This document shows, piece by piece, positions 8,074-60,713 of a stretch of 64,000 bases of DNA (its first letter is position 1; the number at the start of each line of letters is the position of its first letter). This DNA comes from an uncultured Candidatus Peribacteria bacterium (GTDB lineage Bacteria > Patescibacteriota > Gracilibacteria > Peribacterales > Peribacteraceae), in assembly GCA_964554435.1 (NCBI GenBank), contig CAZKOO010000004.1:2116-66115 (forward strand), given 5' to 3'. The notes under the pieces were generated by a model. It made no database searches, was not told the DNA's origin, and saw only the letters and a list, made by a program, of their open reading frames with translations. The position numbers and the translations under genes were made by a program.

Positions 8074-8630
8074 AGGATAATATCTCCAATATTGGCAAAT
8101 TTACAAAAGACTTTACTGAATTTTTTAATAACGAAAACTATGAATATGCCTTAATTGCAATATGTCGAGCTATTGATGCAACTGCAAAAAAAATATTTCC
8201 AAAAGAAAAACCAGGAAAAAGAATAAAGAATATGATTAAAAAATACGAAAGATTTATTTATCAATTTTGGACTACAAACTCTTTACAAGTTTCACCTGGT
8301 GCAAAGATCTTTATTGCTAAAGAAAAACAGCTCGATGATTTTATTTATCTTATAATTAGAAACTCATTAATGCATGGTGATGATTTCGATGAAAAAATCA
8401 ATATATCAAAAGAATTGGAAAATGGCATTGCATGGAACGGTGGGAAAGTTGTTATCAACAAAAAATTTGTACTATCATTATTCTTAATCGTGATCCTTGA
8501 TCCTATTAATTCTCATGAAAGGACGGATGATAAAATATGTTTTTATTTTGAAAAAAAAGAATGGATGATCAATAATTTATGGGGTAAATTTGATATTTTT
8601 TTGAAAAATATTAATTGGCCTATTAATTGA
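8070..8630 (+). CDS. Hypothetical protein with HEPN-like RNxxxH motif
   Basis: 186 aa, visibly AT-richer than the neighbours. RNSLMH (8358-8375) sits in a predicted helical context. An ATGA overlap joins it to the upstream gene, and an AAGGAG lies 12 nt upstream of the ATG. Confidence 0.5.
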   Translation: MKDNISNIGKFTKDFTEFFNNENYEYALIAICRAIDATAKKIFPKEKPGKRIKNMIKKYERFIYQFWTTNSLQVSPGAKIFIAKEKQLDDFIYLIIRNSLMHGDDFDEKINISKELENGIAWNGGKVVINKKFVLSLFLIVILDPINSHERTDDKICFYFEKKEWMINNLWGKFDIFLKNINWPIN

Positions 8631-9729
8631 TCATCACCACCTCCTCATCTACCATCCCCGCACTCTGAAAACTCTCCCATGTCTTTGCTCCACCTTCGAC
8701 GAGAATTGAGCTAATGCCAAAGAAATGATCTGTTGGAGTGGTAAGAGCTTTCCACAGAGATGGGTAATCGAAATGATTGTCGTGATATGGGATTTCGATA
8801 ATTCTCACTCCTTTCTCTTGAAGAAATTTCTTTTTTTCTTTGACATCCGCAGGTAGAAACCTGCTCCCATGTTGCCTATTCTTCATCTCATTGATTTCTT
8901 TGTTTTCTTCGATTCCCTTGATTTCTTTTACACAAAGAATTGTCCTCTCCCTCCACTCATCACTCACCACCGTTGCATCGAGTGGGATGCGAAGGTGCGG
9001 ATCGAGAATAATACGATACGGTTGAAATATTCCCTCTCCCCTCGGGAGAGGGTTAGGCCTGCCCGCCGGAGCCCGAATGGCGTAGGTGGGGTGAGGGTAA
9101 CGTACTGTTAACTTCGGATCATCACTCATAATTGTGCCAACACCAACGAGAATGGCATCATGTGTTGCGCGGAGATTGAGATGTGCCCATTGGTCCTGCT
9201 CCTCTGATGTAATCTTGAGCGGAGATCCATCACTATTCGCAATACGCCCATCGCGTGTCATTGCTTTTTTGAGCGTAATCCACGGACGGCCCTTCGTTAT
9301 GAACGACACAAAGCCACGATTGAGGTACTGACATTGAGGCAAAAGAATAGGGCCAATTACTGTTACTCCTGCATCTTTCAACATCTGAATCCCCTTTCCA
9401 GAAACTTGAGGATTTGGATCGTTCATGCCATAGATCACCGTTTTCACTCCCCTTTCGATAACCATCTGTGCACACGGCGGAGTCTTTTTGTTCGTGTGAC
9501 AACACGGTTCTAGGTTGACGTACAGAATATCATCTGAACAAATTTTTTGATCAAATTTTTCCAATAGATGACGCTCTGCATGCGCACATCCAAAGCCTGC
9601 ATGCCACCCCTGCGCAATCACTTTCTCATCTCGCACTAATACAGCGCCCACAAGAGGATTGATGCCCGTCTTTCCTCTCCCGCGCTTAGCAAGAGAAAGG
9701 CAGTGGTGGATAAAATCTTGATGGGACAT
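8623..9729 (-). CDS. ribD: Riboflavin biosynthesis protein RibD (deaminase/reductase), with repeat insertions and a short C-terminus
   Basis: Deaminase Zn motifs (HAERHLL, PCCHTNKKTPPC) and a reductase domain (DPKLTVR...ILVEGGAKTW). It ends at VVMIN, about 45-50 aa before the usual C-terminus. The start was chosen at MSHQDF. Confidence 0.8.
   Translation of the reverse strand: MSHQDFIHHCLSLAKRGRGKTGINPLVGAVLVRDEKVIAQGWHAGFGCAHAERHLLEKFDQKICSDDILYVNLEPCCHTNKKTPPCAQMVIERGVKTVIYGMNDPNPQVSGKGIQMLKDAGVTVIGPILLPQCQYLNRGFVSFITKGRPWITLKKAMTRDGRIANSDGSPLKITSEEQDQWAHLNLRATHDAILVGVGTIMSDDPKLTVRYPHPTYAIRAPAGRPNPLPRGEGIFQPYRIILDPHLRIPLDATVVSDEWRERTILCVKEIKGIEENKEINEMKNRQHGSRFLPADVKEKKKFLQEKGVRIIEIPYHDNHFDYPSLWKALTTPTDHFFGISSILVEGGAKTWESFQSAGMVDEEVVMIN
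8845..8868 (-). repeat. REP hairpin copy (GGGAGCAGG-TTTCTA-CCTGCGGAT) inside ribD
   Basis: Same family as the hairpins flanking the RAYT gene. Translated in-frame as GSRFLPAD. Confidence 0.75.
9032..9097 (-). repeat. GC-hairpin element inside ribD
   Basis: CCCTCTCCC-ctc-GGGAGAGGG (9-bp stem) followed by GTTAGGCCTGCCCGCC...GGGGTGAGGG. Related copies lie at 27396-27434, 28823-28858, 33817-33873 and 50874-50932. Confidence 0.75.
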
Positions 9730-9832
9730 TGATAAAAGTATGGCAGAAAACAGAGAATTACAAAATCCCTCAATCAAATACATTACTGCATTCAATTGAG
9801 GGATGATTGTTGTTGCTACACAGGAATAATAA

Positions 9833-22247: not shown

Positions 22248-22400
22248 AAACAAAACTCATGTCAAGTTCGTTTAGCGATTCTATACGGCTTTGCCTCAAT
22301 AATTTTGATTCTTCTCTCATAGAGCATTCGTATGAGAAGCCATTATGATGTTTCGGCTACGCCGATATATTCGAAATTATTAAAGCAAATTAGTATAATA

Positions 22401-22432
22401 CCTATGACCTATCACCTAAAACCTAAAACCTG
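22401..22432. repeat. Word array, opposite orientation (TATCACC/TAAAACC)
   Basis: CCTATGACCTATCACCTAAAACCTAAAACCTG. Its units are reverse complements of those at 22204-22247. Confidence 0.7.
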
Positions 22433-22445
22433 ATATTCTGACCTT

Positions 22446-23300
22446 ATGCTTCTTCTTCCCCTCACCACTCCCCTTCTCCGTACTGGTGATGATCTCGCAA
22501 GCATCCTCTTTCAATGCGGATCTCTCCAAGATGGTGATATTCTCGTGCTTTCCTCAAAAGCGCTTGCAGCAGTTGAAGGAGCGCAGATTGATCTGTCTAC
22601 AATGACTGTGACAGATGAAGCGAAGGAATATGCAAAAAAATGCAATCAGGACCCTCGTTTTACGCAGGCGATTCTTGAGGAAACAAAGCGCATGAATGGA
22701 CGAGTGGTTGGCACATGCCCGTACGCACTATTTACCGCACTGAAGCCAAGCGGAATGCAGACTGGAACAATTCTGTGTCCGAATGCTGGACTTGATCAAT
22801 CGAATATCGAGAGTGGTTTTGCCATTGGTTGGCCGAGGGATAGCGTAGGATCGGTAAAACGACTACGAGAGAAAATTATTGGAGCACTGGAAAAGGAAAT
22901 CAATCCGTCTTCGCTCCTGAAGAGCTACGCCGAGATGAATGGAAAAGATACTCTCAACTCTCAACTATCAACTACCAACTTCGCACTCATTCTCTCCGAC
23001 TCGTGTTGCAAGCCTGCGCGTCTTGGAGTGACTGCGTTTGCTCTTGCGTGCTGTGGAATTGACCCTCTCAAGAGTGAAGTGGGCTCGAAAGACATTTTTG
23101 GAAAGCCACTGCGCATGACGCACGAAGCCCTTGCCGATCAACTCGCGACTGCTGGAAACATGCTCATGGGCAACGCAGGGCAATGCACGCCTGCAGCGAT
23201 TATCCGAGATCATGGCATTCCTTTTACGGAGTACAGCGGATGGGTGAATGGCATGGACCCACAGGATGATCTCTTTGCAGATATTCTTCGCTTCGAGTAA
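22446..23300 (+). CDS. CofE/FbiB-like gamma-glutamyl ligase family protein
   Basis: 284 aa. LLRTGDDLASIL...DGDILVLSSKALAAVEG is typical of the F420-0:gamma-glutamyl ligase fold. Contains a translated heptamer tract at 22950-22980. Confidence 0.7.
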   Translation: MLLLPLTTPLLRTGDDLASILFQCGSLQDGDILVLSSKALAAVEGAQIDLSTMTVTDEAKEYAKKCNQDPRFTQAILEETKRMNGRVVGTCPYALFTALKPSGMQTGTILCPNAGLDQSNIESGFAIGWPRDSVGSVKRLREKIIGALEKEINPSSLLKSYAEMNGKDTLNSQLSTTNFALILSDSCCKPARLGVTAFALACCGIDPLKSEVGSKDIFGKPLRMTHEALADQLATAGNMLMGNAGQCTPAAIIRDHGIPFTEYSGWVNGMDPQDDLFADILRFE

Positions 23301-27029: not shown

Positions 27030-27662
27030 TTAACCTGCTATCATCGCAAGAACCTTCGGGTACCACTCTTTTTCGAGTTCTTGCACCTTTTTCTGTAGTG
27101 TTTCCACTGTCTCATCTTCATCAATTGAACACTTTTTTTGTACAATAATTTCCCCTGTATCCACTCCTTCATCCATAAAATGGATGGTAACTCCAGATTC
27201 TTTTTCACCTGTCGCAAGCACTGCCTCATGCACATGGTGACCATACATCCCCTTTCCGCCAAATTTTGGAAGAAGTGCAGGGTGCACATTGATGATCTGT
27301 TTTGCCCATTTTTTGGTAAACCATGGAGAGAAGATCCACATCCAACCCATGCACGCGATAGAAAAGTTGATAGTTGATAGTTGATAGTTGATAGTTCCCC
27401 TCTCCTCGCGGGGAGAGGGGTTAGGGGTGAGGGCATGAATGGCACTATCAATTCTATGATCGTAGCTTTCACGATCTTCATCCTTCTGTTTTTCTACCAC
27501 GATGTAGGGCACATTGTGTGCTTTTGCTTTTTCAATACATCCACGATCGGCGCGATCGGTCACGAGACCAAGGCATGGATTGTTGAGTGTGCCGTTTTGA
27601 ATAGCATGTAGCGTTGCTTCGAATGTTGTACCGCGGGAAGAAGAGAGGACGATGAAGGACAT
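27030..27662 (-). CDS. purN: Phosphoribosylglycinamide formyltransferase
   Basis: 210 aa from MSFIVLSSSRGTTFEA, with INVHPALLPKFGG and GVTIHFMDEGVDTGEII motifs. Carries a repeat insertion. Confidence 0.85.
   Translation of the reverse strand: MSFIVLSSSRGTTFEATLHAIQNGTLNNPCLGLVTDRADRGCIEKAKAHNVPYIVVEKQKDEDRESYDHRIDSAIHALTPNPSPREERGTINYQLSTINFSIACMGWMWIFSPWFTKKWAKQIINVHPALLPKFGGKGMYGHHVHEAVLATGEKESGVTIHFMDEGVDTGEIIVQKKCSIDEDETVETLQKKVQELEKEWYPKVLAMIAG
27366..27434 (-). repeat. Composite element: 4x GTTGATA + GC hairpin + GGTTAGGGGTGAGGGC, inside purN
   Basis: Read in-frame as ALTPNPSPREERGTINYQLSTINFS. A sister copy lies at 28793-28858. Confidence 0.85.
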
Positions 27663-27682
27663 TGTAAGAGGATTCAGAGGAA

Positions 27683-27711
27683 GCAGAAGAGTCAAAGGAA
27701 TCAGAGGAAAC
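27683..27711. repeat. Left inverted repeat of the four-helix-bundle cassette
   Basis: GCAGAAGAGTCAAAGGAATCAGAGGAAAC matches the reverse complement of 28100-28128 at 27 of 29 positions. Confidence 0.75.
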
Positions 27712-28067
27712 TATGATAATGCAGCGCTTAATCGTGTCAAAAGAAAACTGATACGCTTGATTGCGTCATCATAATGCTCAAAATCAGAAATTTTTATATA
27801 GTCTAAATCGGTTGATAGTCGCAATTCACAATGTAATTCTTCAAGTGATGCATGCGCAATTTCTATAAACCGCATCTTTTCTTTTGCAGATTTTTTCGTA
27901 TTTCCTTCTGCGATATTAATGGGGGCACTATATGCCGATCTGCGCATTTGACTTACTAATCCAAACTTTTCTTCAGATGGAAAAGTACATGTTAATTTAT
28001 AAATACTTACACATAATTTGTATGCTTCCTGCCACACTATTAGTTTCTCATATGGTCGTTCATGCAT
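27711..28067 (-). CDS. Four-helix-bundle protein (23S rRNA IVS protein / Avd-like family)
   Basis: 118 aa with FPSEEKFGLVSQMRRSAYSAPINIAEG. Paralog of 1725-2084. Confidence 0.85.
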   Translation of the reverse strand: MHERPYEKLIVWQEAYKLCVSIYKLTCTFPSEEKFGLVSQMRRSAYSAPINIAEGNTKKSAKEKMRFIEIAHASLEELHCELRLSTDLDYIKISDFEHYDDAIKRISFLLTRLSAALS

Positions 28068-28099
28068 AATACTATTATATCATAGGTTCAGGTTCCTCT

Positions 28100-28128
28100 G
28101 TTTCTTCTGACTCCTTTGACTCTTCTGC
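28100..28128. repeat. Right inverted repeat of the four-helix-bundle cassette
   Basis: GTTTCTTCTGACTCCTTTGACTCTTCTGC. Ends 5 nt before the carA stop codon. Confidence 0.75.
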
Positions 28129-28132
28129 ATCT

Positions 28133-29278
28133 TTATAATTGCATCAAGAATTCATCAAACAAATATGCTGCATCTTCTGGCCCTGGTGTTGCTTCGGGGT
28201 GAAATTGAACCGAGAAAAATTTACCAGATTCGTGACGAATGCCTTCCACTGTTCCATCGTTCGCGTTTGTAAACCACACACTCCAACCCTGAGGTAATGT
28301 GGATGCATCCACAGCAAAGCCATGATTTTGCGATGTAATGATGCAACGATCGGTTGCCTTTCCATCTTTCCATTCAATGCATGGCTGATTCAATCCACGA
28401 TGACCATATTTGAGCTTGTACGTATCTCCACCAATCGCAAGCGAGAGAAGCTGATTGCCAAGACAGATGCCGAAGGTTGGAATGTTCTGTTCAATTGCCC
28501 ATTTAATCTGAGTAATTGTTTCGGTGCACTTTTTTGGATCTCCTGGCCCATTGCTGATGAAGAGACCATCGTACTGTAATGATGAATTCTTGAGATCATA
28601 GTTCCATGGAACACGATGCACACGAACGCCTCGAGAAAGCCACGAACGAAGAATGCCACGCTTAATACCACAGTCGTAGACAACCAGTGTTTTTGGCTCG
28701 AGTCCTTCTTCCTTCTTCTCTGGCTCGTAGGTCACAACATCGGTACATGACACCTCCGCAACGAGATTGAGATTGTTCGGATCTAGAAAAGAGTTGGTAG
28801 TTGGTAGTTGGTAGTTGGTAGTTCCCTCTTCCTCTGGGGAGAGGGTCGGGGTGAGGGCACACATTCTCCCCAGCATCACTCCATGTTCACGGAGTTTTTG
28901 CGTGAGAGCTCGAGTGTCGATGCCGGAAATGCCTGGAATGTTGTGATGAACCATCCACTCATGTAGAGAGCTGACGGCCTTATGATGACTAAACTCACGC
29001 ACTTCTGAACTCACGATAATACCACGGACTTGAACAGCCTCACTCTCAAAATTTTTACTAAACCCATACTCATTCTTCTCTTCGCTAGGAACGCCATAGT
29101 TCCCAACAAGAGGATAGGTAAACACGAGTATCTGTCCACGAAAACTTGGATCGGTCATGGAGTCGGGGTACCCAACCATGCCCGTTGAAAACACTACTTC
29201 GCCATCTGTATCAATAGGCGCACCAAAAGACTCACCTTCGAATACTGTTCCGTCGGAAAGAAGAAGAGAAGCTGACAT
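28133..29278 (-). CDS. carA: Carbamoyl-phosphate synthase small (glutaminase) subunit
   Basis: 381 aa with a CPSase small N-domain and a GATase triad context (ICLGNQLL, HGFAV, FSVQFHPEA). Carries a repeat insertion in the interdomain linker. Confidence 0.9.
   Translation of the reverse strand: MSASLLLSDGTVFEGESFGAPIDTDGEVVFSTGMVGYPDSMTDPSFRGQILVFTYPLVGNYGVPSEEKNEYGFSKNFESEAVQVRGIIVSSEVREFSHHKAVSSLHEWMVHHNIPGISGIDTRALTQKLREHGVMLGRMCALTPTLSPEEEGTTNYQLPTTNSFLDPNNLNLVAEVSCTDVVTYEPEKKEEGLEPKTLVVYDCGIKRGILRSWLSRGVRVHRVPWNYDLKNSSLQYDGLFISNGPGDPKKCTETITQIKWAIEQNIPTFGICLGNQLLSLAIGGDTYKLKYGHRGLNQPCIEWKDGKATDRCIITSQNHGFAVDASTLPQGWSVWFTNANDGTVEGIRHESGKFFSVQFHPEATPGPEDAAYLFDEFLMQL
28793..28858 (-). repeat. 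Composite element: 4x GTTGGTA + GC hairpin + GGTCGGGGTGAGGGC, inside carA
   Basis: Read in-frame as ALTPTLSPEEEGTTNYQLPTTNS. Same architecture, orientation and frame as the purN copy. Confidence 0.85.
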
Positions 29279-29326: not shown

Positions 29327-30069
29327 GAAGCAGGATTCTTTCCTGCGGTCCTTTTTATAAAAAAGATACTTCATATCTTCATTTCTAATGGAGTCACATC
29401 CCATTTTCATGATGCAGAAGACCAAGGATAATCAGATTGACAAAAAGCAATGCCAGCTTTCACAGGATTGGCATGAATGTATGAAAGCACATTGTGTGCA
29501 TCATCTGGAAAAAGAAGGTGAAATCGTGATTGCCAAATTGGTCCTCGATCGATTGCAAATGCAGTTCCCCTTTTGAAGGTATACAATATTTTTGAGATTG
29601 ATCCATTGTCTGGAACACTAACTAAAAGATGTACATGATCTGGCATTATTGCAAATCCATAGAGAAAAAATGGAAAAATTTGCTGAGTACGATAGAGTGC
29701 AAGGACTGCTTCATTTGCATAAGCTGGCACTGAAAAAATAGTCTCTCTGTTTTGGGTATTTGTTATAATAAACATGATGGCACTATGCTGGATAGGATGT
29801 CTTTGAAAAGCCATATGTGTCATTGTAGAACAACCGCGCGAAGGAATCGCGCTCCTGTTTGTGTAAAACTTTGATGATCTCTCAATTTTTTGCTATCTAT
29901 AATCATTTTTTTAGTTCTGTGATGAAAAAGAACAGCTTAAAAAGAAGAAATAGTGTATAAAAGAAGATGCAAGACCACGCGAAAGAATCGCGCTCCTATT
30001 GTAATAAATTGAGATAAACGGTGGCAGGCTTATCATAAAAAACGGGAGCAGGATTCTTTCCTGCGGTCC
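29327..30069 (-). mobile_element. REPtron: RAYT gene bracketed by REP hairpins
   Basis: REPs lie at 29327-29352 (+), 29833-29856 (rc), 29974-29997 (rc) and 30044-30069 (+). The consensus is GGAGC(AGG/GCG)-ATTCYTT-(CCT/CGC)GCGG. Confidence 0.75.
29407..29823 (-). CDS. REP-associated tyrosine transposase (IS200/Y1 HUH family)
   Basis: 138 aa with HUH motif MPDHVHLLV and a catalytic Tyr context SYIHANPVKAGI. Confidence 0.8.
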   Translation of the reverse strand: MTHMAFQRHPIQHSAIMFIITNTQNRETIFSVPAYANEAVLALYRTQQIFPFFLYGFAIMPDHVHLLVSVPDNGSISKILYTFKRGTAFAIDRGPIWQSRFHLLFPDDAHNVLSYIHANPVKAGIAFCQSDYPWSSAS

Positions 30070-30930: not shown

Positions 30931-33387
30931 TTATTGTCTATATTCCTCTAAATTCATTTTCAACGTCGAAAGATTTTTCGTACCATTAATACTTGGTAAA
31001 GCATTAAATGCTTTTATGAATTCAGCGATTAAGAAATTGATGGAATTTTGCGCATCTTTTAGTGGTGTTTTTAGGAAAGAAATCACCTTCATTGTTGGTT
31101 TTAGTGGTGCCCACTCGTCTGCTTCAAAGCCAAATTCAATGAGATCTTTTTTACGAACTGGTTTTTTCAAACTTGGAGTGAATTGCAATGCGTTAAGAGC
31201 ATCAACCATCTTCCTCTCACACATCTTCGTTAACACTTTCTCCAGCGCAACCTTGCCCGAGGAACAGGCGAGGAATTCTTTGAAGGAAAGATACATTGGC
31301 TCAACTCCTTCAAGTCTCATTTCCACACGATCACTCTTATCCTTATCAACTCTCTCAACCCTCATAGAAATAGCCTCTCCATGATAATTCGTCTCTGCTT
31401 CAAGCTCTCGCTTGAGTGTGAAGAATTTTGCATTCTCGGCATCGATGACATCTTGCGTTCGTTTTGGTGTTTTCAGTGCAAGCTTTTTCTGCACATAGGT
31501 CATGAGCTTATCGGAGCTTTCAGTAATGCCTTGTTTCGTAAGCAAGCGCTGACCCTCAAGCATCATTTCTACAAACATTGCATGTGCATTTGTCCATTCA
31601 AGAACACCATCACCATTCACATCATACTGCACAGGTGTATCTGGCAAATTGTTATAGGTACAATCATTCCGACGACGTTCTGCCTCGATAAACGGTACCA
31701 TCTCTCTATACTTCGGGTCGTGATCGAATGCGAGGGAGTAGTAGATAAAACCAAGCCCTTCCCCTGCGCTGAGCATGTTCTCTGTCACAGGGCCCGCAAA
31801 CCCCAATTTTTTTGCTTGTGCTTCAGGGATTGTTGTCTGGCTTTGGGTAAAGAATTGATCGATGGCACGAGGGTCATAGCCCATGCGCTCAAGCATCGGT
31901 CGTGCTTGCTCTTTAAACTCTTTTGTATAATGCAATACCACGCGTCCATCACTCAAAATAGTGGTATAGCGTGCAAGATCACCCAATTTCATTTCAGAGA
32001 GCAGAGAAAAAGCGATGGTCGTGCAATGACAACGGTTGCGTGCTTCTTCTGTTAAGAACTGCTCCATCAAGTCCATGCGCGCAGCTGTTTCTTCAGGTGT
32101 CAATTTCTTGTCTGCAAACTTGATGCCAAGAAGGCGCTCAGTTGGCCCTTGCACGACATCTGTTGCTTTTTGTACAACGCCCCGCGCAAGTGGTGCCCAA
32201 ATTTCATTGAGTGGATCTTCCTGTTTCAGTAAAAACTTCTGGCCAAAATACATCACACCAAGCGTTGCAAACATCTTTGGCATTTTATGGAGCAAAAAAC
32301 CTCCTATGGCAAGCAGTGCTATTTTCTCTGCGCCACCCAAATTGCTAAATGTCTCTCCCAGCGTTTCGCTGTCTCTTTCGCGTGACAACTTATCTACTTT
32401 TGTGAGCTTTCCAAGCTCCTGACGATCGGAAAGCAGAGCAAGTTCACGGTCCATCTTCTTCTGACTGAGGGTATATTCCACTTCTTTGTGCACAGTAGGG
32501 TCCACAATACCCATCAGTGGGTTGAGCACTCCATTGAGAAGTGATGGTTCAAGGGTAGAGCGAAGTGACTGAATAGAGGGCATCATGGCAAAGCCTTTCG
32601 TGTGATCGGCAAGATCTTCATAAAACCCTGCATTCATCTTCCTAGCACTTCTAAGATCTCTATTGCCATACTGTGCCCTCAGTGCCGCTTTTGCAAGAAG
32701 GAATGCAGGTTCAGGAGGAGTGTTTGTTGGGTCAGGATTTTTCTCACCAAGCATGTACTGCAGAGCGATCAGCACATCTTTTTTATTCTCTAGAATTTTT
32801 TCTTTTGTAGAGATCATGTCTGTTTCTGGTCCACTCGCAATAATCAATTGTTGTGGAATGATAGTTCGCACAAAATCCACAAAAATTTGTTTGCGGGCTT
32901 CTGGAGTCTGTCCTGCAAGTAAGCCTTCTGGACCATTTTCCAATGTAAAGCCAATTGATGGATCGGGATTTCTTGGAAAAGTTCCGCGCTCAAAGTATTG
33001 AATCCACTTTCCAAGATTGAACAGTTCTGCACTTTTTTCAAATGATGGTCTTGCTCCTTCTCTGTACCCTTTTTCGATCAACTGCTGAATGCTTGCGGGC
33101 ATCACTTTTGTAAACTCTACGGCAGTGCGCAATTGCTTCTGCTTCAGTGCTTCCGAGCGTCCATCTGCCTCGTACGTTTCTATCCATCCTTTTACGAAAG
33201 AATCATTGAGTCCGCCAAGCACTCCCCGTCCGGCAACCAAGCCTGTGTGAATACCATTTTTTGCTAGCCACCCCGATGCGTACGATAGCCCATACGTGAC
33301 GTTTTCTGTAATACCTTTATTCTCATATATCTCCCTCGCCTCACGCGTGCTATAAGCTTGCCGATGAAGGGAAGAATGAAAAAACAT
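30931..33387 (-). CDS. Hypothetical large protein (818 aa)
   Basis: Long uninterrupted ORF with ordinary codon texture. Its start overlaps the upstream stop (TAATG). No known domain recognised. Confidence 0.6.
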   Translation of the reverse strand: MFFHSSLHRQAYSTREAREIYENKGITENVTYGLSYASGWLAKNGIHTGLVAGRGVLGGLNDSFVKGWIETYEADGRSEALKQKQLRTAVEFTKVMPASIQQLIEKGYREGARPSFEKSAELFNLGKWIQYFERGTFPRNPDPSIGFTLENGPEGLLAGQTPEARKQIFVDFVRTIIPQQLIIASGPETDMISTKEKILENKKDVLIALQYMLGEKNPDPTNTPPEPAFLLAKAALRAQYGNRDLRSARKMNAGFYEDLADHTKGFAMMPSIQSLRSTLEPSLLNGVLNPLMGIVDPTVHKEVEYTLSQKKMDRELALLSDRQELGKLTKVDKLSRERDSETLGETFSNLGGAEKIALLAIGGFLLHKMPKMFATLGVMYFGQKFLLKQEDPLNEIWAPLARGVVQKATDVVQGPTERLLGIKFADKKLTPEETAARMDLMEQFLTEEARNRCHCTTIAFSLLSEMKLGDLARYTTILSDGRVVLHYTKEFKEQARPMLERMGYDPRAIDQFFTQSQTTIPEAQAKKLGFAGPVTENMLSAGEGLGFIYYSLAFDHDPKYREMVPFIEAERRRNDCTYNNLPDTPVQYDVNGDGVLEWTNAHAMFVEMMLEGQRLLTKQGITESSDKLMTYVQKKLALKTPKRTQDVIDAENAKFFTLKRELEAETNYHGEAISMRVERVDKDKSDRVEMRLEGVEPMYLSFKEFLACSSGKVALEKVLTKMCERKMVDALNALQFTPSLKKPVRKKDLIEFGFEADEWAPLKPTMKVISFLKTPLKDAQNSINFLIAEFIKAFNALPSINGTKNLSTLKMNLEEYRQ

Positions 33388-33767
33388 TAGGAATTGGAAG
33401 ATTGAGTACTATGAAATGCAGTATACTCTTTTTCTGCAGATGCAAGAATTTCGTTTCGTGCGCTGGCGAGCGCACCTGCAACACACGTTGTAACCTCAGG
33501 GTTTTGAGTAGTATCCATGTACTTCTCGCACCAGAGAACAATCTGTTCGATGTCACTGCCGTACACTGCCTCGTGCCACTCGCTATAAGCACTGCCCCCT
33601 AGCCTCAGAGCAATTTCTTGACAACAAATCTGCATTGTCTTCGTTGCAAGATATTCCAAGAAATCCCCATCATTCTCGTGTGAAAAAATGGGAAGTTCAG
33701 CAGCTGCTTCACCAACAATTTTGCTGATTTCTGCAGTGAGCGCCTGTGGGGAGAAGAGAGAGTCCAT
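33387..33767 (-). CDS. Hypothetical protein (126 aa)
   Basis: ORF translationally coupled to the 818-aa gene. Confidence 0.5.
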   Translation of the reverse strand: MDSLFSPQALTAEISKIVGEAAAELPIFSHENDGDFLEYLATKTMQICCQEIALRLGGSAYSEWHEAVYGSDIEQIVLWCEKYMDTTQNPEVTTCVAGALASARNEILASAEKEYTAFHSTQSSNS

Positions 33768-33873
33768 GTGTTAGGTATTAGGTGTTAGGTATTAGGGGTT
33801 AGGTATTAGGGGTTAGGGGAGAGGGGTTAGGCCTGCCCGCCGAAGTCCGAAGGACGTAGGAGGGGGTGAGGGC
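33768..33873. repeat. Intergenic composite element (heptamer array + GC element)
   Basis: GTGTTAGGTATTAGGTGTTAGGTATTAGGGGTTAGGTATTAGGGGTTAGGGGAGAGGGGTTAGGCCTGCCCGCCGAAG...GGGGGTGAGGGC. Confidence 0.8.
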
Positions 33874-38355: not shown

Positions 38356-40542
38356 CTACAGCCATCTTTTTGAGATGAAGGAACCTGCAATTCCTGCAAG
38401 GAGAGATAGTGCAACAGATGATAGACCTCCTTTTCCTTCTCTCTGTTCTGGTTCTTGTGTCAGTTCAAGTGTTGGCGTGTGCTGCTCTGCAAGAAGATCT
38501 TTCCGATACATCTCCGTGTAATAGACTTGTTTTTTACTGGTTTTCTTTGCAACTTTCTTCTTTACCGCTTTTTTCGATGATACTTTTTTCTCTTTTTTCG
38601 ATCCGTCATCATTCTTTTTCTGCATGGATGTGTCTTCTCCAATCTTTTCTTTAGTCTCATTTTGTACTATTTCTTCCTCATCACTTTCTTGCCATATTCC
38701 AAGGCTTTTTTCTTGAGAATCCTTCTCTGCTTGTGTATACTCTGACCTTCTTTTGTATTCTTTCTTCTTTTCAGCTTCTAACAGACCAATACTGATCAAC
38801 TCTTTCGCACTATCTTTCATGGTAGAATTTGAAAGATATGCTTGTAATTTTCCTTCTTTTGACCACAATTCTGTATCAAATTGTAGTTCAACTTTTTGAT
38901 CTTTTAAAAGGGCTCGAATAGTTTCTACTACTTCACTATTTTCCTCTGAAAATAATGCTCCAATCATCTGAAGAGGAATTTGCTCTTCGTTAAAGTATTT
39001 CTGAGCTGAAAGATCTGGTTGAAACAGGAGTGTTCCGTCGTCAAAGACTTCTACAAGTGTTCCGGTTATTTCTCCATCTCTACAGTCAGCGGAGTAATAC
39101 CTTCTCCCCTCTTCTGCTTTCTCCCAATCAATCGTCGAGACAGAAGCATCGAGTGGTGACACCAGCGTGACATGGCCAATGCTATTTGGAAGACTGATCT
39201 TCATTTCGCTAGAAAACAATATCCGCTCTTCACTTGGTGCAAGATCTCCTGTGAGTGCATACGTCGATAGCGTCGTATTACCAATCTTGAGCTTCCAGCC
39301 ACTCAAATGTACTGTGTCCTCTCCTCTATTTTTAATGATGACGGATTCTTTTCCACTATCGACTGAGTCGGGGTTTGGTAGTGCGGAAACGAGGAATAGA
39401 TTTGCAAAGGGTGAAGGATACGTGATAGGCATGCCGTCCGAGAGTGAGGCCTGCTTTGATGAACTCAGGACAATCTCTTTTGTCAAAATAGATGTTCCAC
39501 AGCTATTCTTCGCCTCGAGCGTCACCTGCGTTGTACCAATCTGGACAAACGCATGCGGTGGTGGATTACAACTCTCACTTGTGTATCCATCGGAAAACGT
39601 CCAATGACATGTACTGTCGGAAATGGACCCTGTGATGGCAACCGCCTGAAAGTTGACAGTGGTTTTATCGATACCAGTGAGTTCTCCGTCTTGGATGATG
39701 ATGGAAAGATTGGGAAGGAAACATTCAGAGGTTATAGGTTCTAGGTGATAGGCACTAGAAGCAAATGATGATTCAGGGGAGACAGATGGAGAAGAATCAG
39801 AGGAAGCAGAGGAAGCAGAAGAGGCAAGGGATGAAGAGGAAGTAGAGGAAAGAGAGGATGTGATTGACGGAGAAGAGACAGATGATGCAGGCGATGATTG
39901 CATACTTGATGATAAGGAACTATCGACGAGCAGAGCGGCATTTCTTGCCGCGATGTCAGATGATACAACAGCAAATGATGACACCGAATTCTGCACACCA
40001 GGCGTTGCAAGAACATTTGCACCGCCATCCATGTTGATTATCTCAATTGCTGATGACCAGTTTGAGGCATCAATTCCTGAGCCAAGTGGATCGATGCGCT
40101 CCATGCTTGCCTTCACTCCACCACTAGGATTGAGCCCTGCAAACGGGTTCCCCACCGCATCATCCACAGTATCAATGAGCAAAGAAGATTGATCAAATAA
40201 TTTGATCAATAATTTTGTATTCGGAAGAGAAATACTTGTAGTGACGAGAAAAGGATCGATGGCAAGACGCGAAGAATGTTGATCTTTATTCGAAAGAATA
40301 ATGTACTCATTGGGCGCGATCACTGACCCACTGGGAAATGTCACCATCACGCTTTCTTGTCCTGTGCTTTTGAGTGAAGTGATGGTGTAGCCAGAAAGAT
40401 CAATTTCAACGTGATCGGGATTATAGAGCTCTATCCATTCATCAGCAGTACTCAGGTCACTCCCCATCCACATCACTTCATTAATCACAACGTGCGCAGA
40501 GCAGAGAGATGGTATCAGAAAGAGAAATGCTGAAAGCATCAT
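38356..40542 (-). CDS. Membrane-anchored lamin-tail-domain (x2) protein with SNase-like C-terminal domain
   Basis: Signal peptide MMLSAFLFLIPSLCSA. LTD motifs VVINEVMWMG...EWIELYNP...LSGYTI and ALPNPDSVDSGKESVIIKN...LSGWKL. An SNase-like block (LQAYL...ELISIGLLEA...SLGIWQ), a Ser-rich linker and a C-terminal TM. Confidence 0.7.
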   Translation of the reverse strand: MMLSAFLFLIPSLCSAHVVINEVMWMGSDLSTADEWIELYNPDHVEIDLSGYTITSLKSTGQESVMVTFPSGSVIAPNEYIILSNKDQHSSRLAIDPFLVTTSISLPNTKLLIKLFDQSSLLIDTVDDAVGNPFAGLNPSGGVKASMERIDPLGSGIDASNWSSAIEIINMDGGANVLATPGVQNSVSSFAVVSSDIAARNAALLVDSSLSSSMQSSPASSVSSPSITSSLSSTSSSSLASSASSASSDSSPSVSPESSFASSAYHLEPITSECFLPNLSIIIQDGELTGIDKTTVNFQAVAITGSISDSTCHWTFSDGYTSESCNPPPHAFVQIGTTQVTLEAKNSCGTSILTKEIVLSSSKQASLSDGMPITYPSPFANLFLVSALPNPDSVDSGKESVIIKNRGEDTVHLSGWKLKIGNTTLSTYALTGDLAPSEERILFSSEMKISLPNSIGHVTLVSPLDASVSTIDWEKAEEGRRYYSADCRDGEITGTLVEVFDDGTLLFQPDLSAQKYFNEEQIPLQMIGALFSEENSEVVETIRALLKDQKVELQFDTELWSKEGKLQAYLSNSTMKDSAKELISIGLLEAEKKKEYKRRSEYTQAEKDSQEKSLGIWQESDEEEIVQNETKEKIGEDTSMQKKNDDGSKKEKKVSSKKAVKKKVAKKTSKKQVYYTEMYRKDLLAEQHTPTLELTQEPEQREGKGGLSSVALSLLAGIAGSFISKRWL

Positions 40543-40699
40543 CCTTTTATTGAACACATTTTTTATACAATAAAGAGAGGAAAGATAGAGGTCTGAAAAC
40601 ATGCTTCCTAGCATGAGAGAAAAATCATCAATTGAAAGATCGGACAAGAAATTTCAAAACTGCATAGTCATTTTTTGCGCAGAAAAATCATCAATACTG

Positions 40700-50873: not shown

Positions 50874-50932
50874 GCCCTCACCTTAAGCTCCCCGCAGTCG
50901 CGGGGGGAGGGGTTAGGGGTGGGGGCTGAGGG
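50874..50932. repeat. GC-hairpin element (intergenic copy)
   Basis: GCCCTCACCTTAAGCTCCCCGCAGTCGCGGGGGGAGGGGTTAGGGGTGGGGGCTGAGGG. Confidence 0.7.
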
Positions 50933-59850: not shown

Positions 59851-60072
59851 ATGCCAGTTAAGAAAACTGCAAAAAAGGCGGCTCCAAAGGCTGCTAAGAA
59901 GGTAGCTACAACAAAGAAAGCAGCTCCAAAGGCTGCAAAGAAAGTAGCTACAACAAAGAAAGCAGCTCCAAAGGCTGCAAAGAAAGTAGCGGCAAAGAAG
60001 CCAGCTGCGAAAAAAGTAGTAGCAAAGGCAAAGAAGCCAGCTGCTAAGAAAGTCGTAGCAAAGAAAAAATAG
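59851..60072 (+). CDS. Histone H1-like Lys/Ala-rich DNA-binding protein
   Basis: 73 aa with a 42-bp tandem unit encoding AAPKAAKKVATTKK (about 3 copies). Confidence 0.6.
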   Translation: MPVKKTAKKAAPKAAKKVATTKKAAPKAAKKVATTKKAAPKAAKKVAAKKPAAKKVVAKAKKPAAKKVVAKKK

Positions 60073-60126: not shown

Positions 60127-60230
60127 GTTTGTAGTTTGTAGTGGGTAGTAGGTAGAATATCCGAAGAAAAAGAGTAAAGATCTCTTTCTGTCTACTATCA
60201 ACTATCTACTATCTACTATTTACTACCCAC
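60124..60230. repeat. Opposed word arrays
   Basis: TTAGTTTGTAGTTTGTAGTGGGTAGTAGGTAGAAT ... GTCTACTATCAACTATCTACTATCTACTATTTACTACCCAC. Confidence 0.75.
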
Positions 60231-60236
60231 TCTCCC

Positions 60237-60713
60237 ATGTCTTCCCTTGCAACCTTTGGCGCTGGATGTTTTTGGGGAGTGGAAGAAACATTTCTTGCAC
60301 TTGATGGAGTACTTGATACACACGTTGGATACAGCGGAGGAAGAACAAAAGATCCAACCTATGAGGATGTGTGCTGGAATGAAACAGGGCATGCAGAAGT
60401 GGTGCAGATTGAATTTGATCCATCCATCATTTCATACGAAACACTCCTCGATGTTTTTTTTGCATCACACAATCCAACGACCTTGAATCAGCAAGGCCCT
60501 GATTTTGGATCGCAATATCGTTCGGTTATTTTCTACCACTCTGAAGAACAGAAAAAAATTGCCGAACAGAGAAGGACAAAAGAAAGCAACTCAGGAAAGT
60601 GGAACGGAAAATCAATTGTGACAGAAATTGTTCCATTTGAAGTGTTCTATCCTGCAGAGGAGTATCATCAGAAGTATCTTCGAAAAAATGGTCGTTCTTC
60701 TTGCCATCTGTAA
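60237..60713 (+). CDS. msrA: Peptide methionine sulfoxide reductase MsrA
   Basis: 158 aa with the GAGCFWGVE active site. Confidence 0.92.
   Translation: MSSLATFGAGCFWGVEETFLALDGVLDTHVGYSGGRTKDPTYEDVCWNETGHAEVVQIEFDPSIISYETLLDVFFASHNPTTLNQQGPDFGSQYRSVIFYHSEEQKKIAEQRRTKESNSGKWNGKSIVTEIVPFEVFYPAEEYHQKYLRKNGRSSCHL

Follow-up and report, generated by a model that had tools for sequence, protein, structure and literature searches.

BoxC, also known as the PIT element and as TMECO, is a GC-rich repeat with the consensus CCCTCNCCC N3-6 GGGNGAGGG N3 GGGNGAGGG, and in vitro it folds into an intrastrand triplex (Holder et al. 2015, PMC4666352). The same motif has been argued to be an HPGQ G-quadruplex-hairpin switch (Kaplan et al. 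2016, PMC5100583). It has been found in over 260 genomes at loci that are unstable, and neither its function nor a gene for its mobility is known (Holder 2015, PMC4666352; Kaplan 2016, PMC5100583); in E. coli K-12 it is described as “always” intergenic (PMC4666352, PMC5100583). A second relevant class is that of heptamer arrays. The TAACTGA direct repeats of Beggiatoaceae and cyanobacteria carry stop codons in the three forward frames, and their reverse strand is translatable with a 7-residue period (MacGregor 2015, PMC4679880); other examples are the cyanobacterial STRR and the GGGNATC repeats (Rehm 2015, PMC4692102). Such 7-nt tandem arrays are mostly intergenic, beside start or stop codons (MacGregor 2015, PMC4679880; Rehm 2015, PMC4692102). 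Finally, the Rickettsia palindromic elements (RPEs) are short palindromic repeats found in frame in unrelated metabolic genes, with a peptide that is tolerated by the fold; they are about 100-150 bp long, Rickettsia-specific, and encode conserved peptides (PMC10969869).

Here we describe a repeat insert in the carA gene (carbamoyl-phosphate synthase small subunit; 28133-29278, minus strand) of the window, i.e. the whole 64-kb stretch of DNA that was analysed. The gene is an intact ORF of 381 aa in which Pfam identifies a CPSase_sm_chain domain (residues 5-138) and a GATase domain (residues 199-378), and the homologues of its product point to a host in the Peregrinibacteria/Peribacteraceae (CPR). 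The insert spans 28792-28858 on the plus strand and consists of a heptamer microsatellite, (AGTTGGT)x4.6 (28792-28823; TRF period 7, 4.6 copies, 100% matches), followed by a GC-rich triplex motif, hereafter TM (28824-28858), with the architecture CCCTCTTCC-TCTG-GGGAGAGGG-TCG-GGGTGAGGG-C. The three blocks of this BoxC/TMECO-type TM occupy 28824-28832, 28837-28845 and 28849-28857, and the final C completes it. Its G-rich strand is the plus strand, and its C-rich strand, ALTPTLSPEEEG, is the sense strand of carA; the hairpin is eroded (RNA fold z = -0.85). Six-frame translation places the insert in frame at CarA residues 141-163, within the inter-domain linker, as the peptide ALTPTLSPEEEGTTNYQLPTTNS, of which the heptamer array, read on the minus strand, contributes TTNYQLPTTN. 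When CarA is aligned with human CPS1 from the PDB and with E. coli CarA, gaps face the insert. In the AlphaFold model of the protein (mean pLDDT 85, pTM 0.86), residues 142-166 are coil with a pLDDT of about 57-62, and they connect a strand of the N-domain to the beginning of the glutaminase domain. Judging from this model, the insert probably amounts to 23 extra residues in a disordered linker between the two CarA domains, and does not form a functional domain.

A sister copy is present in the neighbouring gene purN (GAR formyltransferase by Pfam; 27030-27695, minus strand, with the likely true start at the M at 27662). It consists of (AGTTGAT)x4.6 (27365-27396, plus strand, TRF), read as TINYQLSTIN, and a type A TM, so called for its TTA loop (27397-27434, plus strand; CCCCTCTCC-TCGC-GGGGAGAGGGG-TTA-GGGGTGAGGG-C), read as ALTPNPSPREERG; array and TM together (27365-27434) are translated as ALTPNPSPREERGTINYQLSTIN. 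The 9-bp hairpin of the purN TM has a predicted fold of -18.9 kcal/mol (z = -3.0). The insert is in the loop that joins the two halves of the Formyl_trans_N fold, where PDB alignments split around residues 72-97, and PurN orthologues are 196-201 aa long without it. Sequence, Pfam and translation agree in supporting the initial annotation in that carA carries an in-frame insert in its inter-domain linker, with a sister copy in purN. The two copies are 80% identical over 51 nt. The expectation for the 22-nt G-rich string, allowing up to 3 mismatches, was 0.00 in 100 shuffles, and period-7 arrays number 13 in the window versus 0.1 in shuffles (with four arrays of period 6 and none of period 8); the insert is therefore not a product of chance. 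Short GC-rich repeats can be mis-assembled in metagenome bins, and the inserts might in principle be an assembly artefact or mark carA and purN as pseudogenes. This is scarcely credible, given that both ORFs are intact with strong full-length domain scores, that the two copies differ consistently in their heptamer unit, and that independent assemblies from other samples have TMs at the same CarA and PurN sites.

The spacer between carA and purN holds a gene of its own. A 23S_rRNA_IVP (four-helix-bundle) gene, ORF 27711-28067 on the minus strand, is bracketed by inverted repeats of 32-42 nt (27671-27712 and 28090-28131; 91% complementary over 32 nt), the left arm being a 9-nt tandem repeat, AGAGGAATC x4.8. 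In the relatives L001 and L004 there is only a short carA-purN spacer, so the gene looks like an inserted cassette.

Both TMs correspond closely to BoxC. The carA copy departs from the consensus at a single position, in block 1, and the purN copy fits it with 4-G runs and the type A loop. A pan-bacterial scan of one genome per species with the strict 26-base pattern CCCTCTCC N3-9 GGAGAGGG N1-6 GGGGTGAGGG matched at least 120 stretches from many phyla, including Proteobacteria, Chloroflexi, Planctomycetes, Acidobacteria, Verrucomicrobia and Actinobacteria; among the matches listed are the genera Pseudomonas, Xanthomonas, Enterobacter, Klebsiella, Acinetobacter, Akkermansia and Bifidobacterium. 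The ORF context of 140 pan-bacterial copies was unreliable because of long spurious frames in high-GC genomes, and only low-GC or domain-confirmed cases were used. A relaxed pattern finds 7.0 TMs per 100 kb in Peribacteraceae and 0.39 per 100 kb in control carA loci. On the basis of sequence, the GC-rich part is the published, pan-bacterial BoxC/PIT/TMECO motif, and not a new element or a mobile element private to this genome. Two known repeat classes are combined here into a composite that is specific to the lineage. The likeness to BoxC/TMECO extends to the three-block architecture, near-identical sequence, occurrence in multiple copies, inverted pairs and variation of loci between relatives. 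The difference is one of location, always intergenic in E. coli, whereas here three of the five copies are inside housekeeping genes of a CPR bacterium. The carA, purN and ribD copies thus depart from the intergenic location, which is a property of one species and not a structural criterion of the motif. In the literature searched, no paper reports translated BoxC copies, and Rfam gives no family at gathering score anywhere in the window.

The three TMs within intact ORFs, out of five in the 64 kb, are those of carA, purN and ribD; two of the five abut heptamer arrays and two have an inner hairpin module. The ribD TM (9032-9097, plus strand; ORF 8623-9795, minus strand) lacks heptamers, and its blocks 2 and 3 are separated by the module CCTGCCCGCCGGAGCCCGAATGGCGTAGG. 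Its translation is YPHPTYAIRAPAGRPNPLPRGEGI (PHP..PLPRGEG), in a frame unlike that of carA and purN, and a 19-residue gap lies opposite this TM in the alignment with B. subtilis RibD (2b3z); the gap relative to a solved RibD structure indicates that this copy is a true insertion. The other two TMs are intergenic. In the hybrid copy at 33770-33872 (plus strand), GTTAGGT/ATTAGGG heptamers grade into GGGGAGAGGGGTTAGG, followed by a ribD-type inner module and then GGGGGTGAGGGC; the minus-strand ORF 33387-33767 starts 3 nt downstream of this copy. The last, between folP and gmk (50874-50926, plus strand), is palindromic, GCCCTCACC..CTCCCCGC-AGTC-GCGGGGGGAGGGGTTAGGGGTGGGGGC. The G-rich strand is on plus in all five TMs, and GC skew is too weak for assigning the replication strand. 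The inner module recurs as a 29-nt hairpin, CCTGCCCGCCGRAGYCCGAAKGRCGTAGG, lying within two TMs, between their blocks 2 and 3 (9059-9087 and 33826-33854), and a different hairpin occupies the same position in Cysteiniphilum (L208) TMs beside a DUF559 gene.

The heptamer arrays of the window have many different units (AGTTGGT, AGTTGAT, GATAGGT, TAGGTTT, TCTACTA and others). One array without a TM is in frame in a cofE-like F420 ligase gene (22950-22980, plus strand; ACTCTCA/ACTATCA/ACTACCA), read as TLNSQLSTTN. Compared with the TAACTGA and STRR arrays, those of the window share the 7-nt tandem unit, in at least three tandem copies and enriched over other periods, with stops in all frames of one strand and a translatable other strand. 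They differ in that their units are many and other than TAACTGA, that they occur mid-enzyme and not only at protein ends, and that they turn over at orthologous sites. Intergenic arrays are often inverted pairs (2424/2493, 22223/22396, 42482/42524, 60121/60191, 63173/63242). On the mRNA-sense strand, TAG-type arrays come after stop codons, and the stop-free CTA-type arrays finish 11-23 nt short of start codons, at the expected place of a Shine-Dalgarno sequence, as at 60191-60225 before the ATG at 60237 and at 22396-22431 before the ATG at 22446. Tandem repeats of other periods are also present: a 42-nt (or 36-nt) repeat at 59870-60065 lies in ORF 59851-60072 (plus strand), which encodes a Lys/Ala-rich, histone-H1-like low-complexity protein, and the gene for a large LTD/PKD/SNase-domain protein, ORF 38356-40647 (minus strand), has an in-frame heptamer array together with a 9-nt repeat, AGAGGAAGC x7.7 (39729-39858).

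REPs are likewise dispersed short GC-rich hairpins, and a RAYT-like gene lies next door: ORF 29407-29823 (minus strand), 129 nt upstream of carA, matches Pfam Y1_Tnp. The insert could accordingly be viewed as a REP/REPIN-type repeat mobilised by this Y1 transposase. We regard this as highly improbable. The gene has flanking hairpins of its own, GCAGGATTCTTTCCTGC (29329-29351 and 30047-30069) and GCGCGAAGGAATCGCGC (29833-29859 and 29974-30000), which include a REPIN-like inverted doublet and none of which resembles the TM, whereas a REP/REPIN repeat flanks its RAYT gene and matches the dispersed copies. The TM moreover has a third block and a pan-phylum sequence, and occurs in many phyla regardless of RAYTs. 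The RAYT was rejected as mobiliser of the TM, a proposal largely refuted by the different REP hairpins at its own gene.

The initial annotation noted that the carA and purN inserts are in the only stop-free orientation and in the same frame, and suggested selection on translatability or a shared insertion mechanism. Its argument on orientation stands: six-frame translation shows that none of the three plus-strand frames is free of heptamer-derived stops (TAG, or TGA and TAG), and that the minus strand is open. With no open frame on the plus strand, the orientation is explained by a filter on translatability, i.e. survivorship; a shared mechanism is neither needed nor excluded. The shared frame, on the other hand, is no constraint, given that three of three minus-strand frames are open in the carA element and two of three in the purN element, that the ribD copy uses another frame, and that TMs at one loop of PurN orthologues are read in at least three (ALTPNPSPREERG, PSPPTPLPSRRERG and PS..AGRPTLSQKGEG). 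As 7 and 3 are coprime, three or more heptamers in tandem give one and the same cyclic 7-residue peptide whatever the frame, and it is only for the GC-rich part of the element that the frame is meaningful. Among the carA-centred Peribacteraceae loci, nine of the ten intragenic copies with the C-rich strand as sense use the LTPxPSP frame, a bias that could reflect either site- or frame-specific insertion or a selected peptide.

The element is comparable in this respect to the RPEs, with which it shares in-frame palindromic insertion into unrelated metabolic genes. It is set apart from them by description, being 35-66 nt long, present in several frames, and with a peptide that depends on the frame. 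By analogy, then, the carA-type element works like an RPE and is not assigned to the RPE family.

Alignment of 120 CarA orthologues, a check put forward at the outset, confirmed the linker as the site of the insert and at the same time showed that the linker, from GVMLGR to DPN, is hypervariable in both length and sequence. It mostly encodes translated heptamer arrays, and its peptides often have a 7-residue period (KVESGKWKVES, VSGQWSV, LTIDNGQLTID, AISDQRSAIS); in the DNA of related contigs the heptamer units differ (GCGATCA, AATTGAC, CTCAAGT, GAATAAA, GGGAAAA). Among close relatives the linker is 14 to 35 residues long, with unrelated contents as to heptamer unit and presence or absence of a TM. 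The boundaries of replacement are sharp, DNA alignments being conserved in the flanks up to IVQD and again from EDPN on, and unrelated between. In L003 the linker is an inverted TM pair with nothing in between. A second CarA hot spot is a loop of the glutaminase domain near residue 305 (KDGK), with heptamers in several relatives (L127 10882; L131 10901; L132 10878 and 10923; L159 572) and a TM in L126 (6388-6424). The PurN loop has a baseline of about 7 residues and contains heptamer-derived peptides in many orthologues and TM-derived peptides, in three frames, in at least eight. The PurN of P0242, 88% identical to that of the window, has KSQLPQAKSQL without a TM, and that of P0243, 77% identical, has a ribD-type TM. 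Neither site is a clean insertion into a conserved protein: across all Peribacteraceae orthologues both are hypervariable and are hot spots for repeats. The CarA linker, the second CarA loop, the PurN loop and the RibD loop are likely to be repeat hot spots in this family, and sequence comparison suggests, with reasonable confidence, that gain, loss and replacement of the repeat DNA in them far outpace the evolution of the protein around them. L158, L160 and L195, whose CarA is about 50% identical to that of the window, have translated arrays of CTTTCAA and AATTGTC in the linker, so this hot spot extends beyond Peribacteraceae.

The history of the linker TM may be considered in the light of these comparisons. 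A TM is found at one linker position, to within one codon and in the same frame, in the window, L003, L004, L129 and L131, and a degenerate TM is present in L128. Such positional identity, together with the reported instability of TM loci (Holder et al., PMC4666352), would be compatible with a single ancient insertion followed by vertical inheritance and many losses, as opposed to repeated gain. We consider the single insertion rather doubtful, because only about 5% of CarA orthologue clusters carry a linker TM, each nested among non-carriers, and because the loops and second modules of the TMs differ among carriers. The six TM lineages are scattered, and their nearest relatives have heptamers only, at up to 92% core identity (P0052 versus P0082, 92%; P0117 versus P0066, 90%). 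Of the target-site duplication that, along with terminal inverted repeats, characterises a MITE, no sign is visible when TM-bearing and heptamer-bearing alleles are aligned, a comparison in which both alleles are filled.

The insert might also be under selection, either as a Pro/Thr-rich linker tuned for CarA-CarB coupling or as a contingency (phase-variation) locus for carA and purN. The linker TMs of CarA do keep one frame in the six lineages, heptamer arrays are classically prone to slippage, a single unit gained or lost shifting the frame, and the hot spots recur in genes of nucleotide and cofactor biosynthesis (carA, purN, ribD and cofE). The unrelated linker contents of close relatives, however, argue against a selected peptide, and the insert is predicted by AlphaFold to be disordered. 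The arrays are short, with 3-5 units, and all of the 120 CarA and 120 PurN orthologues retrieved are full length, a set in which truncated alleles would be under-sampled. On balance, selection of the insert appears unlikely.

The best reading of the insert, in our judgement with fair probability, is that of selfish or unstable repeat DNA which a disordered loop tolerates and which has passed a filter of translatability. The 66-nt segment would combine a 7-nt microsatellite with a solo BoxC/PIT/TMECO copy, which has a third, G-rich block besides its C-rich arm and its G-rich arm. Three things may account for its persistence: a permissive surface loop, a sense strand free of stop codons, and a length that keeps the frame. 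Heptamer arrays would lengthen and shorten by replication slippage, and inside genes a change would be expected to survive only if its net length is a multiple of 3 nt. The TMs themselves may spread with DUF559-endonuclease cassettes, or be remnants of these.

The association with DUF559 is seen in several settings. In-frame inverted TM pairs flank a DUF559 domain inserted in PriA (L121 2407-2839) and in MetG (L015 2111-2649), while HsdR (L033) has a solo TM. Among the matches listed, DUF559 occurs within 170 nt of the TM in 4 of 119 TM loci, and the control loci, 768 kb in total, have none; in E. coli K-12 (L205) a TM is located 167 nt downstream of ycjD, a DUF559 gene. Conversely, among 120 DUF559 homologues there are 9 whose ORFs run into TM peptides at their ends. 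Five further DUF559 genes were picked on long contigs, none of them with a TM peptide (L208, L209, L211, L212 and L213). All five have a TM-like motif upstream, which ends 3-9 nt before the ATG in L208, L209, L211 and L212 and is farther from it in L213, and inverted TMs are present downstream in four of the five (all but L209). In the typical arrangement, 3-9 nt separate block 3 from the ATG of the DUF559 gene, and the inverted copy is at its stop codon. Searches by tblastn and with a profile HMM over about 272-286 kb of Peribacteraceae DNA, the window among it, gave no DUF559 gene, and no paper in the literature searched links DUF559 with BoxC. By analogy with these loci, the link suggests an explanation of the TM family in general, and for this genome DUF559 is a candidate source only. 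We tentatively propose, at somewhat less than even chances, that TMs are the flanking inverted repeats of a pan-bacterial cassette of DUF559, a Vsr-like PD-(D/E)XK endonuclease, that lands in frame in essential genes, and that solo or paired motifs, those of carA, purN and ribD among them, are its footprints.

The unusual feature of this locus is that known repeats are predicted to be read as protein inside essential enzymes, at loop sites that are recurrently hypervariable. BoxC/triplex motifs have been described as strictly intergenic, with no known function or link to mobility, and the carA, purN and ribD copies of the window are in frame; “intergenic” repeats are thus tolerated inside essential genes of a candidate-phylum bacterium. 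This is a practical warning for the annotation and alignment of CPR proteins, and, as a natural experiment, it can also show which loops of an enzyme accept arbitrary peptides. The DUF559 association offers a testable route by which BoxC may spread, and, if the cassette model is true, a 30-year-old orphan repeat family would gain a mechanism of mobility. In CPR bacteria, the cassette combined with heptamer slippage would then be a generator of hypervariable surface loops in housekeeping enzymes.
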